Shown piece by piece: positions 733-24,845 of a stretch of DNA of 64,000 bases. A program made the position numbers and the translations under genes. The notes below the pieces were generated by a model that worked only from the letters and a program-made list of their open reading frames with translations, made no database searches and was not told where the DNA came from. Position 1 is the stretch's first letter; every line of letters begins with the position of its first letter. The stretch lies in the NCBI RefSeq assembly GCF_056712565.1, contig NZ_CM160072.1; one strand, 5' to 3'.

Positions 733-2106
<1,374 letters not shown>

Positions 2107-2748
2107 TCACAACTCCGGGGTTAAATGAGCAAGAATTTGTTTTGCCTGAGTGGTCAGGCGATTACGAGAAAACATCAGTTGCAGACGACCGCCGCCGACC
2201 TGGTGCCAGAGCACGGCGGCGCGAATGCCTGCCAGCAGGGTTGCGCGAACTTTCGCCTGCACCTGTGGGCTTTGCAGTACAGCAGGGGAACCAGTGACCT
2301 GAATGCGCGGGCCAAGCGGGCTGATAACATCAACATAGATGGCAGCCATCGCGCTCATCAGCGTTTCGGACTGTAAATCGAAGTGTTCGAGCTGGCGTTG
2401 CAGGCCGTTGATCCGGTTGCCCAGAGTGTCGAGCGCACCTTTCGCTGAGGAGAGTTTGCGCTCAAGCACCATCAGACTGAGTGTGTAGCGGGTTAATTCG
2501 GCGTTTAAGCCCTGGCGACTGCTGGCATTGAGTACGCCGAGCAAGGTTTCCAGCCCGACGCGCAGGTTGGCTTCGCTACCGCCAAAAACCGCCAGCGTTG
2601 AGCTGGGGTTCATATCGATAATACTGTTGAGTGAGACGTGTAGCGCATCGCCATCACAATGCCCCTGGTGAGCGAGTTGTTGCACCAGGCGTGCCGACTG
2701 ACAAATACCGGCAAGGGCGAGGGTGATGTCATAGTAATTCTTTGCCAC
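2107..2748 (-). CDS. hflD: High-frequency lysogenization protein HflD
   Basis: ORF (MNV)[31 protein letters not shown]...; start probably the GTG two codons inside the tracked ORF. Confidence 0.85.
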
Positions 2749-2783
2749 GTTCACTGCTTCCTTGTTTTAAGTAAAGATAATAA

Positions 2784-4405
<1,622 letters not shown>

Positions 4406-8111: not shown

Positions 8112-8351
8112 CTATTTCCTGCGCATGTCACGTAACTTCTTAATGTGTTCTGCCGTTTCGATCTCTTCTGCTATCCGATCTGCATCAGCTTTATTCACAG
8201 GTTCAAAGTCATGATTAAAGCGGAACATGCTGGCGATACATGTTCTGCCTTTTCGGATGTAGTGAACTTTGTTGTGGGTAGAACGCAGGATTTTGCAGGG
8301 AGTGCCGTGGTGGTCGACGTACCAGGTGTTAGGGTCAATCACTCTGAACAT
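8112..8351 (-). CDS. Hypothetical phage early protein
   Basis: 79 aa ORF in the leftward early operon; no recognised domain. Confidence 0.4.
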   Translation of the reverse strand: MFRVIDPNTWYVDHHGTPCKILRSTHNKVHYIRKGRTCIASMFRFNHDFEPVNKADADRIAEEIETAEHIKKLRDMRRK

Positions 8352-9460: not shown

Positions 9461-9621
9461 ACCGCCCCCCGTTTATTATTTATCTCCTCAGCCAGCCGCT
9501 GGGCTTTCAGCGGATTTCGGATAACAGAAAGACCGTGAAATACCCAGCCTCGCTTTGTAACGGAGTAGACGAAAGTGATCGCGCCTACCCGGATATTATC
9601 GTGAGGATGGGTCATCGCCAT
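9433..9621 (-). CDS. Hypothetical small phage protein
   Basis: 62 aa ORF immediately upstream of exo, overlapping its neighbour. Confidence 0.3.
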
Positions 9622-10292
9622 TGCTCTCCAAATACAAAACCAATTTCAGCCAGTGCTTCGTCCATTTTTTCGATGAACTCCGGCACCATCTCGTCAAAAC
9701 TCGCCATGTACTTTTCATCCCGCTCAACCACGACATAATGCAGGCCTTCACGCTTCATTCGTGGGTCATAGTTGGCAAAGTACCAGGCATCTTTTCGTGT
9801 CACCCACATGCTGTACTGCACCTGGGCCATGTAAGCCGACTTTATGGCCTCGAAACCACCGAGCCGGAACTTCATGAAATCCCGGGAGGTAAACGGGCAT
9901 TTCAGCTCAAGGCCATTGCCGTCACTGCATAAACCATCGGGAGAGCAGGCGGTGCGCATACTTTCGTCGCGATAGATGATCGGGGATTCAGTAACATTCA
10001 CGCCGGAAGTGAATTCAAACAGGGTTCTGGCGTCGTTCTCGTACTGTTTTCCCCACGCCAGCGCCTTAGCATTAACTTCCGGAGCCACACCGGTGCAAAC
10101 CTCAGCCAGCAGGGTGTGGAAGTAGGACATTTTCATGTCAGGCCACTTCTTTCCTGAGCGGGGCTTTGCTATCACGTTGTGAACTTCTGAAGCGGTGATG
10201 ACGCCGAGCCGTAATTTGTGCCATGCATCATCCCCCTGTTCGACAGCTCTCACGTCGATCCCGGTACGCTGCAGGATAATGTCCGGTGTCAT
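9612..10292 (-). CDS. exo: Lambda exonuclease (Red alpha)
   Basis: 226 aa; [54 protein letters not shown]... which I recognise as essentially identical to lambda Exo. Confidence 0.95.
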
Positions 10293-11074
10293 GCTGCCAC
10301 CTTCTGCTCAGTGGCTTTCTGTTTCAGGAATCCAAGAGCTTTCACTGCTTCGGCCTGTGTCAGTTCTGACGATGCGCGAATGTCGCGGCGAAATATCTGG
10401 GAACAGAGCGGCAATAAGTCGTCATCCCATGTTTTGTCCAGGGCAATCAGCAGAGTGTTAATCTCCTGCATGGTTTCATCGTTAACCGGAGTGATGTCGC
10501 GTTCCGGCTGACGTTCTGCAGTGTATGCGGTATTTTCGACAATGCGCTCGGCTTCATCCTTGTCATAGATACCAGCAAATCCGAAGGCCAGACGGGCACA
10601 CTGAATCATGGCTTTATGCCGTAACATCCGTTTGGGATGCGACTGCCACGGCCCCGTGATTTCTCTGCCTTCGCGGGTTTTGAATGGTTCGCGGCGGCAT
10701 TCATCCATCCACTCGGTAACGCAGATCGGATGATTGCGGTCTTTGCGGTAAATCCGGCATGTACATGATTCATTGTCCTGCTCAAAGTCCATACCATCAA
10801 ACTGCTGGTTTTCATTGATGATGCGGGACCAGCCATCAACGCCCACCACCGGAACAATGCCGTTCTGCTTATCAGGGAAGGCGTAAATTTCTTTCGTCCA
10901 CGGATTAAGGCCGTACTGGTTGGCGACGATCAACAATGCGATGAACTGCGCATCGCTGGCATCACCTTTAAATGCCGTCTGGCGAAGAGTGGTGATCAGT
11001 TCCTGTGGGTCGACAGAATCCATGCCGACACGTTCAGCCAGCTTCCCTGCCAGCGTTGCGAGTGCTGTACTCAT
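10289..11074 (-). CDS. bet: Recombinase Bet (Red beta)
   Basis: 261 aa; [89 protein letters not shown]... Confidence 0.95.
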
Positions 11075-11079
11075 CCGTT

Positions 11080-11376
11080 TTATACCTCTGAATCAATATC
11101 AGCCTGATGGTGAGCAATGGTTTCAACTATGTACCGGATGTGTTCTGCCATGCGCTCCTGAAACTCAACATCGTCATCAAACGCACGGGTAATGGCTTTT
11201 TTGCTGGCCCCGTGGCGTTGTAAATGATCGATGCATAGCGATTCAAACAGGTGCTGGGGCAGGCCTTTTTCCATGTCGTCTGCCAGTTCTGCCTCTTTCT
11301 CTTCACGGGCGATCTGCTGGTAGTGACGCGCCCAGCTCTGAGCCTCAAGACGATCCTGAATGTAATAAGCGTTCAT
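11080..11376 (-). CDS. gam: RecBCD inhibitor Gam (short form)
   Basis: 98 aa; [56 protein letters not shown]... Confidence 0.93.
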
Positions 11377-11451
11377 GGCTGAACTCCTGAAAATGGCTGT
11401 GAAAATATCGCCCGCGAAATGCCAGGCTGATTAGGAAAACAGGAAAGGGGG

Positions 11452-11595
11452 TTAGTGAATGCTTTTGCTTGATCTCAGTTTCAGTATTAATATCCATTTT
11501 TTATAAGCGTCGACGGCCTCACGAAACATCTTTTCATCGCCAATAAAAGTGGCGATAGTGAATTTAGTCTGGATAGCCATAATTGTTTGATCCAT
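11452..11595 (-). CDS. kil: Host-killing protein Kil
   Basis: 47 aa [47 protein letters not shown] within the 89 aa tracked ORF; overlaps cIII as in lambda. Confidence 0.85.
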
Positions 11596-11728
11596 TTTTT
11601 GGGACTCCTGGCTGATTAAGTATGTCGATAAGGCGTTTCCATCCGTCACGTAATTTACGGGTGATTCGTTCAAGTAAAGATTCGGAAGGGCAGCCAGCAA
11701 CAGGCCACCCTGCAATGGCATATTGCAT
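11564..11728 (-). CDS. cIII: Anti-FtsH regulator CIII
   Basis: Hand translation gives [54 protein letters not shown] (54 aa); below the 60 aa ORF-track cutoff. Confidence 0.85.
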   Translation of the reverse strand: MQYAIAGWPVAGCPSESLLERITRKLRDGWKRLIDILNQPGVPKNGSNNYGYPD

Positions 11729-11800
11729 GGTGTGCTCCTTATTTATACATAACGAAAAACGCCTCGAGTGAAGCGTAATTGGTATGCGGTAACGCCGCGC

Positions 11801-12169
11801 TCAGGCGGCCTTGATAGTCATATCATCTGAATCAAATATTCCTGATGTATCGATATCGGTAATTCTTATTCCTTCACTACCATCCATTGGAGGCCATCCT
11901 TCCTGACCATTTCCATCATTCCAGTCGAACTCACACACAACACCATATGCATTTAAGTCGCTTGAAATTGCTATAAGCAGAGCATGTTGCGCCAGCATGA
12001 TTAATACAGCATTTAATACAGAGCCGTGTTTATTGAGTCGGTATTCAGAGTCTGACCAGAAATTATTAATCTGGTGAAGTTTTTCCTCTGTCATTACGTC
12101 ATGGTCAATTTCAATTTCTATTGATGCTTTCCAGTCGTAATCAATGATGTATTTTTTGATGTTTGACAT
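11801..12169 (-). CDS. ea10: Lambda Ea10-like protein
   Basis: 122 aa ORF in the lambda ea10 position; I recall this sequence as lambda Ea10. Confidence 0.8.
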   Translation of the reverse strand: MSNIKKYIIDYDWKASIEIEIDHDVMTEEKLHQINNFWSDSEYRLNKHGSVLNAVLIMLAQHALLIAISSDLNAYGVVCEFDWNDGNGQEGWPPMDGSEGIRITDIDTSGIFDSDDMTIKAA

Positions 12170-12351
12170 CTATTCATATCCTCATAGATAAAAAATCGCC
12201 CTCACACTGGAGGGCAAAGAAGATTTCCAATAATCAGAACAAGTCGGCTCCTGTTTAGTTACGAGCGACATTGCTCCGTGTATTCACTCGTTGGAATGAA
12301 TACACAGTGCAGTGTTTATTCTGTTATTTATGCCAAAAATAAAGGCCACTA

Positions 12352-12552
12352 TCAGGCAGCTTTGTTGTTCTGTTTACCAAGTTCTCTGGCAATCATTGCC
12401 GTCGTTCGTATTGCCCATTTATCGACATATTTCCCATCTTCCATTACAGGAAACATTTCTTCAGGCTTAACCATGCATTCCGATTGCAGCTTGCATCCAT
12501 TGCATCGTTTGAATTGTCCACACCATTGATTTGTATCAATAGTCGTAGTCAT
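12352..12552 (-). CDS. ral: Restriction alleviation protein Ral
   Basis: 66 aa; MTTTIDTNQWCGQFKRCNGCKLQSECMVKPEEMFPVMEDGKYVDKWAIRTTAMIARELGKQNNKAA. Confidence 0.92.
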   Translation of the reverse strand: MTTTIDTNQWCGQFKRCNGCKLQSECMVKPEEMFPVMEDGKYVDKWAIRTTAMIARELGKQNNKAA

Positions 12553-12765
12553 ACGGATAGTCCTGGTATTGTTCCATCACATCTTGAGGATGCTCTTCGA
12601 ACTCTTCAAATTCTTCTTCCATATATCACCTTAAATAGTGGATTGCGGTAGTAAAGATTGTGCCTGTCTTTTAACCACATCAGGCTCGGTGGTTCTCGTG
12701 TACCCCTACAACGAGAAATCGGATAAACTCTATTCACCCCTACAGAGAGCAAAAGAGAAACGCCG

Positions 12766-16875: not shown

Positions 16876-17775
16876 ATGACAAATACAGCAAAAATACTCA
16901 ACTTCTGCAGAGGTAACTTTGCCAAACAGGAGCGTAATGTGGCAGATCTCGATGATGGTTACGCCAGACTATCAAATATGCTGCTTGAGGCTTATTCAGG
17001 CGCAGATCTGACCAAGCGACAGTTTAAAGTGCTGCTTGCCATTCTGCGTAAAACCTATGGATGGAATAAACCAATGGACAGAATCACCGATTCTCAACTT
17101 AGCGAGATTACAAAGTTACCCGTCAAACGGTGCAATGAAGCCAAGTTAGAACTCGTCAGAATGAATATTATCAAGCAGCAAGGCGGCATGTTTGGACCAA
17201 ATAAAAACATCTCAGAATGGTGTATCCCTCAAAACGAGGGAAAATCCCCTAAAACGAGGGATAAAACATCCCTCAAATTGGGGGATTGCTATCCCTCAAA
17301 ACAGGGGGACACAAAAGACACTATTACAAAAGAAAAAAGAAAAGATTATTCGTCAGAGAATTCTGGCGAATCCTCTGACCAGCCAGAAAACGACCTTTCT
17401 GTGGTGAAACCGGATGCTGCAATTCAGAGCGGCAGCAAGTGGGGGACAGCAGAAGACCTGACCGCCGCAGAATGGATGTTTGACATGGTGAAGACCATCG
17501 CGCCATCAGCCAGAAAACCGAATTTTGCAGGGTGGGCTAACGATATCCGCCTGATGCGTGAACGTGACGGACGTAACCATCGCGACATGTGTGTACTGTT
17601 CCGCTGGGCATGCCAGGACAACTTCTGGTCCGGTAACGTGCTGAGCCCGGCCAAACTCCGCGACAAGTGGACCCAGCTCGAAATCAACCGTAACAAGCAA
17701 CAGGCAGGTGTGACAGCCTGCAAACCAAAACTCGACCTGACAAACACTGACTGGATTTACGGGGTGGATTTATGA
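16876..17775 (+). CDS. O: Replication initiator O
   Basis: 299 aa; MTNTAKILNFCRGNFAKQERNVADLDDGYARLSNMLLEAYSGADL...; contains ori iterons. Confidence 0.95.
   Translation: MTNTAKILNFCRGNFAKQERNVADLDDGYARLSNMLLEAYSGADLTKRQFKVLLAILRKTYGWNKPMDRITDSQLSEITKLPVKRCNEAKLELVRMNIIKQQGGMFGPNKNISEWCIPQNEGKSPKTRDKTSLKLGDCYPSKQGDTKDTITKEKRKDYSSENSGESSDQPENDLSVVKPDAAIQSGSKWGTAEDLTAAEWMFDMVKTIAPSARKPNFAGWANDIRLMRERDGRNHRDMCVLFRWACQDNFWSGNVLSPAKLRDKWTQLEINRNKQQAGVTACKPKLDLTNTDWIYGVDL
17224..17350. repeat. ori-lambda: four iterons plus AT-rich region inside O
   Basis: Four ~19 bp ATCCCTCAAAACGAGGGA-type repeats then AAAGAAAAAAGAAAAGATTATT. Confidence 0.9.
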
Positions 17776-18473
17776 AAAACATCGCCGCACAGATGGTTAA
17801 TTTTGACCGTGAGCAGATGCGTCGGATCGCCAACAACATGCCGGAACAGTACGACGAAAAGCCGCAGGTACAGCAGGTAGCGCAGATCATCAACGGTGTG
17901 TTCAGCCAGTTACTGGCAACTTTCCCGGCGAGTCTGGCTAACCGTGACCAGAACGAACTGAACGAAATCCGCCGCCAGTGGGTTCTGGCTTTCCGGGAAA
18001 ACGGGATCACCACAATGGAACAGGTTAACGCAGGAATGCGCGTAGCCCGTCGGCAGAATCGACCATTTCTGCCATCACCCGGGCAGTTTGTTGCATGGTG
18101 CCGGGAAGAAGCATCCGTTATCGCCGGACTGCCAAACGTCAGCGAGCTGGTTGATATGGTTTACGAGTATTGCCGGAAGCGAGGCCTGTATCCGGATGCA
18201 GAGTCTTATCCGTGGAAATCGAACGCGCACTACTGGCTGGTTACCAACCTGTACCAGAACATGCGGGCCAATGCGCTGACTGACGCGGAATTACGACGCA
18301 AGGCTGCCGATGAACTGACCTGTATGACAGCGCGAATTAACCGTGGTGAGACGATACCTGAACCAGTAAAACAACTTCCTGTCATGGGCGGCAGACCTCT
18401 AAATCGTGTTCAGGCGCTGGCGAAGATCGTAGAAATTAAAGCTAAGTTAGGACTGAAAGGAGCAAGTGTATGA
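17772..18473 (+). CDS. P: Replication protein P (helicase loader)
   Basis: 233 aa; MKNIAAQMVNFDREQMRRIANNMPEQYDEKPQVQQVAQIINGV... Confidence 0.95.
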   Translation: MKNIAAQMVNFDREQMRRIANNMPEQYDEKPQVQQVAQIINGVFSQLLATFPASLANRDQNELNEIRRQWVLAFRENGITTMEQVNAGMRVARRQNRPFLPSPGQFVAWCREEASVIAGLPNVSELVDMVYEYCRKRGLYPDAESYPWKSNAHYWLVTNLYQNMRANALTDAELRRKAADELTCMTARINRGETIPEPVKQLPVMGGRPLNRVQALAKIVEIKAKLGLKGASV

Positions 18474-19274: not shown

Positions 19275-19798
19275 CTATCAAATCAAATACGCCAGCACAC
19301 GACAAGGACTGCTGGCAAACGCCGCTTTGGCTTTTTGATGCACTGGATATTGAGTTTGGATTCTGGCTGGATTCGGCAGCGAGCGACAAAAATGCTCTGT
19401 GCGCTCACTGGCTAACTGAGGACGACGACGCGCTCAATTCTGAGTGGGTAAGCCACGGTGCAATCTGGAATAACCCACCGTACAGCAATATCAGGCCGTG
19501 GGTGGAAAAAGCCGCTGAGCAGTGTATACAACAGCGACAGACGGTAGTGATGCTTGTGCCAGAGGATATGTCTGTCGGATGGTTCAGCAAGGCTCTGGAG
19601 AGTGTTGACGAAGTTCGTATTATCACTGATGGACGGATTAATTTTATCGAACCATCGACAGGGCTGGAGAAGAAGGGAAACAGCAAAGGCTCCATGCTGC
19701 TGATTTGGCGACCGTTCATCAGTCCTCGACGGATGTTTACTACCGTATCCAAAGCGGCATTGATGGCGATCGGGCAGGGCGTCAGGAGGGCTGCATGA
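19271..19798 (+). CDS. Phage orphan DNA N6-adenine methyltransferase
   Basis: 175 aa from [25 protein letters not shown]...; contains the NPPY catalytic motif (IWNNPPYSN); start overlaps ninB stop (ATGA); occupies the lambda ninC slot. Confidence 0.8.
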
Positions 19799-19971
19799 GA
19801 CGACAGCGACGAAGCATCACCGACATAATCTGCGAAAACTGCAAATACCTTCCAACGAAACGCTCCAGAAATAAACGCAAGCTAATCCCAAAAGAATCTG
19901 ACGTAAAAACCTTCAATTACACAGCCCACCTGTGGGATATCCGGTGGCTAAGATATCGTGCGAGGAAATGA
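19795..19971 (+). CDS. ninE: NinE
   Basis: 58 aa [58 protein letters not shown]. Confidence 0.85.
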
Positions 19972-20315
19972 CAATGGATTATTCACAGTTAAGTGATTTT
20001 GAAATTAACAGAATGGTAGGAGACATAATTTTTAAAGGCCTTTGGGCAAGTAAACCGGAAACATCAGGGAATAACACCAACAAATGGTATTACGGAAATG
20101 CTGATACAACTTTTGAGCCATTAAATCATTTGCCTGACTACTGCAATGATCCGAGCGCTTCATGGCCGATTATTGAGAAATACAGGATTTCTATCTTAGA
20201 CCAGTTAACTGAATGGTGTGTGGATGCAAAAGGCGTAAGCCCAATATTTGATACCAGACCTCTCCGCGCCGCCATGATTGTCTTTCTCCTGATGCAGGAG
20301 GCCAATAATGCTTAG
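19968..20315 (+). CDS. Hypothetical nin-region protein
   Basis: 115 aa from [24 protein letters not shown]...; start overlaps ninE stop (ATGA); no recognised domain. Confidence 0.5.
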
Positions 20316-20525
20316 CCCATCTCAATCCCTTCAATACCTGAAAGAAAGCATAGAGCGGGCTTCAATGTGCACAGAGTGGATTCTATCTAGGTTTAGCGCA
20401 TACAGAAGATTGCCGGTAAAGGGCATGCCAAGCAAGTCGATGCTGCATATGCAAAAGAATGCGCGCTGGAAGGTATGGCGAGAACACAGGTTATGTGGCT
20501 GAAAGAGGGGGTTATTAAGGCGTGA
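20308..20525 (+). pseudogene. Mosaic remnant: NinF-like N-terminus joined to YbcO-like C-terminus in another frame
   Basis: Frame 1 starts [18 protein letters not shown] (NinF-like) then diverges; a second frame ends ...[29 protein letters not shown] which matches the C-terminus I recall for DLP12 YbcO. Confidence 0.5.
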
Positions 20526-20884
20526 ATACCTACAGCATCACATTACCCTGGCCTCCGAGCAATAATCGCTATTACCGCCATAATCGCGGGCGCACGCACG
20601 TCAGCGCAGAGGGGCAGGCATACCGCGATAACGTCGCCCGAATCATTAAAAACGCAATGCTGGATATCGGCCTGGCTATGCCTGTGAAAATCCGCATTGA
20701 GTGCCACATGCCGGATCGCCGTCGCCGTGACCTGGATAATCTGCAAAAAGCCGCTTTTGACGCACTCACTAAAGCAGGTTTCTGGCTGGATGATGCTCAG
20801 GTCGTTGATTACCGCGTTGTGAAGATGCCTGTTACCAAAGGTGGGAGGCTGGAACTGACCATCACCGAAATGGGGAATGAATGA
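20522..20884 (+). CDS. rusA: Holliday junction resolvase RusA
   Basis: 120 aa; [48 protein letters not shown]... Confidence 0.92.
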
Positions 20885-21021
20885 TGTTTGAGTTTAATAT
20901 GGCAGAACTTCTTCGCCACCGCTGGGGGCGTCTGCGCTTATATCGTTTCCTCGGTTCTGTTTTGACCGATTACCGAATACTGAAGAATTACGCCAAAACC
21001 CTGACAGGAACAGGAGTATGA
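20881..21021 (+). CDS. ylcG: YlcG-like small protein
   Basis: 46 aa [46 protein letters not shown]; below ORF-track cutoff; same position as ylcG after rusA in DLP12. Confidence 0.7.
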
Positions 21022-21106
21022 AGTCAGAGATAACAATCAACTAATACTGTTTTGTTGATTTTTGCTTGTAATTGGCGTTCTGGTCTGATTTTTGTGGAGT
21101 AAGTTG

Positions 21107-21490
21107 ATGCGTGATATTCAGATGGTTCTTGAGCGTTGGGGTGCGTGGGCGGCTAATAATCATGAAGATGTGACCTGGTCGTCCATTGCCGCCGGTTTTA
21201 AGGGATTAATTCCTTCAAAAGTAAAATCTCGCCCGCAATGTTGTGACGATGACGCGATGATCATTTGCGGGTGCATGGCCCGTCTGAAAAAGAACAACAG
21301 CGATTTACACGATTTATTAGTAGATTATTATGTATGTGGTATGACATTCATGTCACTGGCAAGTAAGCATTGCTGCTCGGATGGTTATATCGGGAAAAGG
21401 TTACAGAAGGCTGAGGGCATAATTGAAGGGATGTTAATGGCATTAGATATCCGGTTAGATATGGATATCGTTGCTAATAATTCTAATTGA
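21107..21490 (+). CDS. quuD: Late gene antiterminator Q (QuuD/phage 82-type)
   Basis: 127 aa from [60 protein letters not shown]...; GGAG RBS. Confidence 0.88.
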
Positions 21491-21626
21491 TATGCAATTG
21501 TTTACTAAAAGTTATTAAAAATGGGGCGTGGAAACGCCCCCAAAATAAAGGGTAATATATAACAGAAGGTTTATATAGTAAGAAGCAAGGTAGTGCTTCT
21601 AAAGGAAGTGGCTTGAGGGCTCCACT

Positions 21627-21669
21627 TATATGTTGCGGAGGCAAAGCCTCCCGCAACATATCTTTTTCG
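21627..21669. terminator. tR'-like terminator downstream of Q; also 10 bp past the porin stop
   Basis: Imperfect hairpin ATATGTTGCGGAGGCAAAGCCTCCCGCAACATAT followed by CTTTTTCG on the plus strand. Confidence 0.65.
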
Positions 21670-21678
21670 TAAGTCAGA

Positions 21679-22761
21679 TTAGAACTGATAAACCAGACCT
21701 ACAGCGACGATGTCGTCGGTATCAATACCAGCTGTTTTGGTAAACTTACTATCGTCAATTAAGTTGATTTTGTAATCAACAAAAGTGGACATGTTTTTAT
21801 TAAAGTAGTAAGTAGCACCGACATCGACATACTTGACTAAGTCTCGGTCACCATGAACACCAAGGTCTTTACCTTTTGACTGAAGGTAAGCAACAGATGG
21901 ACGCAGACCGAAGTCAAACTGATATTGTGCTACTGCTTCAAAGTTTTGTGCTTTGTTTGCAATATGGTTATTACCAAAAACGGTCATATTCTGAGTTTCA
22001 GAATATGTGGTAGCCAGATAGATATTGTTCGCATCATATTTCAGGCCTGCAGCCCATACTTCCGCATTTTTGCCGGAGGCATTGAATTTGCTCTTACCAT
22101 AGGCGACCTGACCGTCAGTGCGATCTGATTTAGCATAGGTTGCACCCACGCCGAATCCTTCATACTCATAAGTAGTGGAGAAACCGAAACCATCACCATT
22201 GGCTTCAGTTACGTCAGTGCGGTCATTTTTACCCTGATACTGAGCAGCAAAGTTCAGGCCATCGACCAGACCAAAGAAGTCGTTGTTACGATAAGTTGCA
22301 ACACCAGTAGTGCGACCAGTCATGAACACATCTGTTTGGGTCCAGGTATCACCACCGAATTCTGGCAGAACGTCAGTCCACGCACCGATGTCGTATGCTA
22401 CACCGTAGTTACGGCCGTAATCGATTGAGCCGTAATCACCAAATTTCAGGCCTGCAAATGCAAGACGGGTTTTGTCTTTGGAAGAACCTTGAGATTCAGC
22501 ACGGTTGCCTTTGAATTCATATTCCCACTGACCGAAACCAGTCAGTTGATCGTTGATTTGGGTTTCACCTTTGAAGCCAAGACGGGCATAAGTAGTATCA
22601 CCATCATCTGCATCATTAGAGGAGAAGTAGTGCTTGGCATTAACTTTCCCGTATAGATCCAGCTTGTTACTGTCTTTATTATAAATTTCAGCTGCCTGAG
22701 CAGACATCGCCATCAGTACTGATGCAGCTACAGCAGAAATTGCCACTGTTAATTTTTTCAT
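21679..22761 (-). CDS. nmpC: OmpC/NmpC-family outer membrane porin (prophage moron)
   Basis: Signal peptide [24 protein letters not shown]-terminal ...VGLVYQF beta-barrel terminus, porin-like body; inserted between Q and lysis genes on the opposite strand. Confidence 0.88.
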
Positions 22762-24551: not shown

Positions 24552-24845
24552 TTATTGTGAGCAATACACACGCGCTTCCAGCGGAGTATAAATGCCTAAA
24601 GTAATAAAACCGAGCAATCCATTTACGAATGTTTGCTGGGTTTCTGTTTTAACAACATTTTCTGCACCACCACAAATTTTTGCTGCATCGACAGTTTTCT
24701 TCTGCCCAATTCCCGAAACGAAGAAATGATGGGTGATGGTTTCCTTTGGTGTTACTGCTGTAGGTTTGTTTCCAACAGTAAACGTCTGTTGAGCACATCC
24801 TGTAATAAGCATTGCCAGAGCGGCAGAAAACAACATTTTTTTCAT
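24552..24845 (-). CDS. bor: Bor lipoprotein (serum resistance, lysogenic conversion)
   Basis: 97 aa from MKKMLFSAALAMLITGCAQQTFTVGNKPTAVTPKETITHHFFVSGIGQKKTVDAAKICGG... Confidence 0.9.
   Translation of the reverse strand: MKKMLFSAALAMLITGCAQQTFTVGNKPTAVTPKETITHHFFVSGIGQKKTVDAAKICGGAENVVKTETQQTFVNGLLGFITLGIYTPLEARVYCSQ

Follow-up and report, generated by a model that had tools for sequence, protein, structure and literature searches.

The question raised by this locus is what lies between the ninX and rusA genes of a lambdoid prophage, where a 218-bp segment begins in one frame like the phage protein NinF and ends in another like YbcO. The prophage lies in a window of 64,000 nucleotides (contig NZ_CM160072.1 of assembly GCF_056712565.1), this being the whole stretch of DNA that was analyzed, and an identical copy in E. 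coli Nissle 1917 adjoins icd. The segment had been described from its letters and open reading frames (ORFs) only (hereafter the sequence-only reading) as a non-functional hybrid left at a recombination junction, and the coordinates and frames given there all held when they were re-checked. Positions 20308-20525 are very probably a relic left by two events of illegitimate recombination in the dispensable nin region, with ninX intact and both ninF and ybcO dead.

The early-right region of the prophage runs in the order O (16876-17775), P, ren, ninB, a Dam-type methyltransferase gene, ninE, ninX, the segment in question (hereafter the scar), rusA, ylcG and quuD (21107-21490), followed by a porin gene on the reverse strand. 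Lambdoid nin genes are dispensable for lytic growth and are exchanged and truncated, as in the lambda nin5 deletion. To judge from lambda biology, the scar would be transcribed within the delayed-early pR operon. The features in and around the scar were located as follows.

19795-19971, plus strand: ninE, intact, 58 aa, annotated as a member of the NinE family in Nissle 1917 and in phage ev207, whose sequences are identical here
19968-20315, plus strand: ninX, intact, 115 aa from an ATG that overlaps the ninE stop (ATGA, 19968-19971)
20308-20370, plus strand: P22-type ninF 5' fragment, 21 codons (63 nt); identity to P22 stops at 20370
20371-20435, plus strand: 65-nt orphan "middle" segment, matching neither ninF nor ybcO
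20436-20525, plus strand: ybcO (DUF1364) 3' fragment, last 29 codons and stop, a pseudogene with DLP12 homology
20308-20502, plus strand: chimeric ORF, 64 aa, composed of NinF residues 1-21, read-through of the middle segment and out-of-frame ybcO, with its stop at 20500-20502
20505-20511, plus strand: rusA Shine-Dalgarno sequence GAGGGGG, within the retained ybcO remnant
20522-20884, plus strand: rusA, Holliday-junction resolvase gene, intact, its GTG start overlapping the ybcO stop (GTGA)

Some parts of the prophage farther from the scar also differed among relatives. At about 11000-12743 the window departs from the Nissle 1917 copy, which there holds a truncated integrase gene and a frameshifted ISEc52; the window, HS13-1 and D8 carry other DNA at this place, and the two copies are identical from about 12743 onward. 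Decayed relatives that match the window in this interval carry gam, kil, cIII and ral there. Two genes of prophage cargo lie on the reverse strand, namely an intact phage-borne porin gene at 21679-22761 (named ompC by PGAP in the identical Nissle copy) and, at 24552-24845, iss (PGAP name in the same copy), a homologue of bor that encodes a serum-survival lipoprotein. The gene at the porin position in K-12 DLP12 is nmpC and is interrupted by IS5, whereas the porin gene here is intact; in some relatives the porin gene between quuD and the holin gene is replaced by genes for a lipocalin, a YbgA/DUF1722 protein and an AraC-type regulator.

The genes to the left of the scar are complete. The DNA of ninE is 94.6% identical to lambda and 94.7% identical to P22. 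The 115-aa ORF that follows had been located correctly (19968-20315) but called unrecognized; compared with the Pfam family PF10765 (Phage_P22_NinX, DUF2591), it scored 62 bits against a cut-off of 22.6 (E 8e-17) over profile positions 1-114 of 114, and its predicted product is a full-length member of the known NinX family. PGAP starts the gene at 19974 (113 aa) and names the product "phage protein NinX family protein". The gene overlaps both of its neighbors, by the ATGA with ninE and by 8 nt with the start of ninF (20308-20315). The order ninE-ninX-ninF, the ATGA overlap and the 8-nt overlap are the same in P22, whereas lambda lacks ninX. The N-terminal 14 and C-terminal approximately 55 residues of the product are near-identical to P22 NinX and the central third is diverged. 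Across approximately 20011-20160 the DNA has no nucleotide similarity to P22 ninX, and both flanks are about 94% identical. The central third is thus a mosaic patch within the gene, in a predicted protein that still fits the NinX profile from end to end.

The 218-bp segment was dissected by using local BLAST and an ungapped five-way comparison. In these comparisons P22 homology ended at 20370 and DLP12/ybcO homology began at 20436. The proposed junction of two modules is supported, but it is not a simple fusion: because a third piece of 65 nt separates the ninF and ybcO fragments, there are two junctions, and a two-parent fusion was ruled out by the finding that 20371-20435 is homologous to neither gene. 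The modules had been given as lambda-like and DLP12-like; the right one is indeed of DLP12 type and the left one is P22-like. No single intact frame homologous to one known protein runs across 20308-20525.

Two frames that each resemble a known protein can also mimic a frameshift error, introduced by sequencing or assembly into an intact gene. However, the two frames here belong to unrelated families with 65 nt of unrelated DNA between them, and the arrangement recurs without a single base change in hundreds of independent complete genomes as well as in phages. This replication across assemblies already refutes an artefact, to which we give practically no credence.

The left piece had been likened to lambda NinF. 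It does start like a NinF, though of the P22 type: the P22 protein has the same start and the same ninX overlap, 17 of its first 21 residues are identical to those in the window, and divergence begins after codon 21. RefSeq lambda NinF begins VIDQNRSYEQESVERA (VIDQNRSYEQ...), a different N-terminus. DNA identity to P22 is 93.8% over 20161-20370, from the 3' end of ninX into ninF, and about 91% for the ninF fragment up to 20370. The fragment retains its native AGGAGG Shine-Dalgarno sequence at 20296-20301 (6 nt upstream of the start) and the 8-nt overlap with the ninX stop. The NinF family profile (PF05810) covers residues 20-44 of P22 NinF at 50.4 bits, and the window ORF at 20308-20502 gave no match to it at E <= 1, because divergence sets in ahead of the cysteine-rich segment (CANCG...CEACC within P22 residues 20-44), which is lost in the window. 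A P22-type N-terminal leader and start context do not by themselves make this ORF a NinF.

The right piece ends as the sequence-only reading had it, in that the frame closing at 20523-20525 agrees with the end of K-12 YbcO. From 20436 through rusA and ylcG into quuD (compared to 21100), the window is 99.1% identical to K-12 DLP12. Intact ybcO alleles in other genomes matched 20436-20470 at 100% and nothing upstream, and by tblastn the homology of the 42-aa frame to YbcO set in at residue 14 (position 20436). Relative to K-12 DLP12 ybcO (b0549; orf96 of phage 82; a putative nuclease), the first 67 codons, including the cysteine-rich part, are absent. The fragment covered profile positions 62-92 of 92 of the YbcO family (PF07102) at 17.7 bits against a cut-off of 29.9, while K-12 YbcO scores 144.8 bits. 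A TAG at 20394-20396 closes its frame upstream, and no start codon precedes the ATG at 20475. PGAP labels it "DUF1364 ... incomplete; missing N-terminus". With no NinF match on one side and a partial, sub-cut-off YbcO match in a frame without a start on the other, the description of the segment as a non-functional hybrid stands.

What follows ybcO is preserved. DLP12 and phage 82 both have ybcO followed by rusA with the GTGA stop/start overlap seen in the window, and in DLP12 these are likewise followed by ylcG and quuD. In the record for phage 82 (X92588), the ribosome-binding site of rus lies 11-16 nt ahead of its start codon, corresponding to 20506-20511 of the window. This ribosome-binding site of rusA is the one evident functional element left in the scar, and about 90 nt of ybcO probably survived because they contain it; deletions extending further to the right would have abolished translation of rusA. 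Between the stop of the chimeric ORF and the Shine-Dalgarno sequence of rusA there are 3 nt, whereas an intact ybcO ends in overlap with the start of rusA.

Of 5426 complete E. coli genomes, 834 contain the middle piece, which takes only two forms, one at 99% identity or more (583 genomes; the scar form) and one at 90.8% (249 genomes; the EHEC/Stx1-phage form). No gene is annotated over it in any of the 834 occurrences. A diverged ybcO or ninF allele was considered as its source and rejected, since, in every phage, the tblastn match of the 42-aa frame to YbcO began no earlier than residue 11-14. A parent gene was found neither by tblastn in phages nor in the 5426 complete E. coli genomes.

The second form places the same piece in other surroundings. 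In the Stx1 phages SH2026Stx1 and AU6Stx1 (Traversvirus), ninF is likewise broken after codon ~21, at the identical nucleotide, and is followed by the same 65 nt at 88-91% identity; however, the ninF 5' end is lambda-type there and P22-type in the window. The 65 nt are joined to ybcO in the window, whereas in the Stx1 phages they run into an AT-rich insert of approximately 2.8 kb in place of the ninF core, and beyond this insert the last ~40 nt of ninF reappear, followed by an HNH gene and ninG. Judged by eye, the 65 nt look more GC-rich than the AT-rich DNA after them; they may be native to the insert or left over from yet another gene. The insert was examined in SH2026Stx1 (NC_049919.1, positions 1400-4230 of the locus) and is also present in about 249 EHEC-type genomes. 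It carries a reverse-strand ORF of 590 aa that matched no Pfam family, and upstream of this ORF lies a run of approximately 20 repeats of the hexamer TTTCTA.

The shared piece suggests an order for the two breaks. Junction A (ninF to middle) would be the older, because it is common to two lineages that have different ninF 5' types and are about 9% apart in the middle piece; junction B (middle to ybcO) appears specific to the lineage of the window. On this account, an ancestral P22-type ninE-ninX-ninF array would have been broken after ninF codon 21 and joined to foreign DNA, of which 65 nt survive, and a second break would have joined this foreign DNA to codon 68 of ybcO in a ybcO-rusA-ylcG-quuD module of the DLP12/phage-82 type. 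Recombination and lysogeny would then have carried the resulting single junction into a large number of E. coli genomes and into several genera of phages. Microhomology was absent at junction A. At junction B the candidate was CGATG (20438-20442), also present in the Stx1-phage form; it lies to the right of the break, with 20436-20437 already ybcO, and is unconvincing.

The present distribution of the scar was surveyed in genomes and phages. The interval 19790-20900 is covered by at least 80% in 561 complete E. coli genomes; those listed are 100% identical and include Nissle 1917, UTI89, APEC O1, S88, ATCC 25922 and the type strain. The phages ev207, ev017 and PhiR57_1 are also 100% identical over this interval, and mEp332 (98.6%), ev243, ev099, 2G7b and others are 98-99.8% identical. 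Five phage variants spanning 98-100% identity show no indels in the scar, which fits a single origin and later recombinational spread into Jouyvirus, Nesevirus and Radostvirus. The scar is tolerated, since about 580 complete E. coli genomes carry it without a base change, as do phages that form plaques or can be induced. The arrangement is compatible with a viable phage, since the host fields in the records of phages with exactly this scar name K-12 MG1655, E. coli C or ECOR13.

Given that the start signals of ninF are intact, the chimeric 64-aa ORF is probably translated, and its predicted product is probably functionless. The contrary reading, that the fusion created a genuine small protein gene ("NinF-like") which is now maintained, draws on the same start: a strong Shine-Dalgarno sequence (AGGAGG) and a start coupled to the ninX stop. 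The ORF is also unbroken in about 580 genomes and remains open in each of the five phage variants; one substitution turns its stop from TGA to TAA in the same place, and the ORF bears the name "protein ninF" in RefSeq phage records (NC_049949.1, 41367-41561, and NC_049953.1, 41057-41251, both equivalent to 20308-20502). Its content argues otherwise. Two-thirds of the ORF is an out-of-frame reading of other sequence, it belongs to no Pfam family, and the segment that carries the NinF domain in P22 (residues 20-44) is unmatched. A search of 5.8 billion proteins returned near-identical E. coli copies and other accidental fusions only, with no diverged homologues. Substitutions among the phage variants, though small in number, were six non-synonymous against one synonymous and one stop-to-stop.

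Disruptions in other strains bear on the same reading. The scar has been hit in other assemblies by two IS insertions, by frameshifts (database proteins P0006 and P0007) and by deletions that remove part of it and spare the neighboring nin or late-region genes. The insertions fit dispensability of the scar. One and the same IS has inserted twice independently, following 20420 and following 20452, in two draft assemblies whose contigs both end in the IS; from its end (TGTCACGAACGGTGCAATAGTGATCCAC...) we take the element to be of the IS21 family. The two insertions bring to mind those IS insertions upstream of rusA by which the gene is activated in K-12. A maintained small protein is unlikely, and the "protein ninF" label is likely a propagated misannotation. 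The chimeric ORF does not encode a NinF and is unsuitable as a seed for alignments of that family.

The two frames could still be joined in expression if a programmed -1 ribosomal frameshift within 20397-20500 produced a NinF'-YbcO' fusion. The geometry allows it: the YbcO frame lies at -1 to that of ninF, neither is interrupted over 20397-20499, and the database protein P0006 spans both frames. P0006 differs in sequence from the window, though, and so represents a mutant or an error and not evidence of recoding. A slippery heptamer of the form X XXY YYZ is absent from 20397-20500, no stable structure was found over 20355-20450 (z = +0.37), and such a fusion would lack the cysteine-rich N-terminal part of YbcO. 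We regard recoding as extremely improbable.

A function in the DNA or RNA itself was weighed against similar evidence. The middle piece, or the scar as a whole, could act as a terminator, a small RNA or a "linker" for module exchange, given that the 65 nt are conserved in two different genomic contexts and that an inner site (20417/18) is a recurrent deletion end-point. On the other hand, no promoter-like or terminator-like sites were found in 20308-20525, an Rfam search of 19700-21700 returned no match with E < 0.35 and none in the scar, and folding was no better than that of shuffled sequences on either strand (z-scores +0.37 and +0.19). The two contexts differ by 9%, without a compensatory pattern to examine. 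A functional non-coding element is thus very unlikely, and at the level of sequence no sign of either protein-level or RNA-level constraint on the scar is apparent. As a fossil of two recombination events, the scar is ordinary lambdoid mosaicism in a non-essential region, known in kind and already flagged by the annotation pipeline. No paper found in a literature search mentioned ninF and ybcO together.

The recurrent end-point inside the middle piece came to light through the protein search, which returned fusion ORFs with different left partners (P codon 33, P codon 47, a 434-type cro and a P22-type cro via P), all joined to the scar at 20417/18. Clean deletions were subsequently mapped against the window in four isolate drafts, gut-metagenome scaffolds, the complete genome HKUOPY1 and DLP12 of K-12 MG1655. 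The sites concerned were as follows, no strand being assigned.

20413-20422: CCGG-TA-AAGG, recurrent deletion end-point, at which four distinct deletions end exactly
20413-20422, 17865-17875, 17908-17915, 18160-18165, 18238-18256, 20489-20495 and 20968-20975: TA-junction sites
9584-9590, 9887-9893, 10262-10268, 12465-12471, 17571-17577 and 8170-8177: further TA-junction sites

The four deletions at CCGG-TA-AAGG join P codon 47 to 20417, P codon 33 to 20417, the 434-type cro to 20417, and 20418 to 20971. The sample of junctions is small and was partly reached from a single biased starting point; within it, a TA lay inside the 2-5 nt common to both parents at 12 of the 14 distinct deletion junctions that were fully resolved, against a background in which TA makes up 5.2% of positions in the region. 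Both junctions flanking the exoD remnant in DLP12 of K-12 MG1655 are among the 12, and both non-TA junctions come from one strain, EC130. The 15 parental sites gave the palindromic consensus C-N-G-K-TA-M-C-N-G. Binomial comparison with all 706 TA sites of the region gave p = 0.011 (G at -2), 0.013 (G/T at -1) and 0.005 (C at +1). Several sites were reused with different partners: 20417/18 four times (the most reused), 17869-17873 three times, and 20971 and 9586-9588 twice each. The two junctions of the scar itself are not of the TA type.

Taken together, the TA excess, the palindromic consensus and the reuse of sites would point to a dimeric, site-preferring enzyme and not to random slippage between short repeats; a recombinase, a transposase or a nuclease would be the candidate kinds. 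A recombinase with a palindromic crossover dinucleotide would be expected to give inversions, and no inversion bounded by TA sites was seen in 15 loci. The metagenome scan for further left partners at 20417/18 returned no matches; the unconstrained pattern was found in only nine contigs, which, as the null scan implies, carry the window's G three bases upstream of the pattern. The junction of P to 20417 occurs in no complete E. coli genome and that of cro to 20417 in one (HKUOPY1). A literature search for prophage deletions at TA dinucleotides returned only mariner Tn-seq papers. The lambda nin5 deletion was considered as a precedent and set aside: it lies between 10-bp direct repeats and is a different kind of junction from the TA type. 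No such repeat is present at the two junctions of the scar either.

We record the TA-junction pattern as a by-product of the analysis and not as a finding. It is possible, though we consider it doubtful, that the inert scar contains in its middle piece the most reused site of an undescribed, TA-specific breakage-and-joining process that erodes lambdoid prophages of the DLP12 type.

The scar is a convenient and unique lineage marker, in which a single junction event can be traced across the prophages of E. coli B2 and several newly named phage genera. The side observation on TA matters more than the scar itself: if TA-centered palindromic junctions proved true in a systematic survey, they would offer a mechanistic handle on how cryptic prophages like DLP12 are whittled down.
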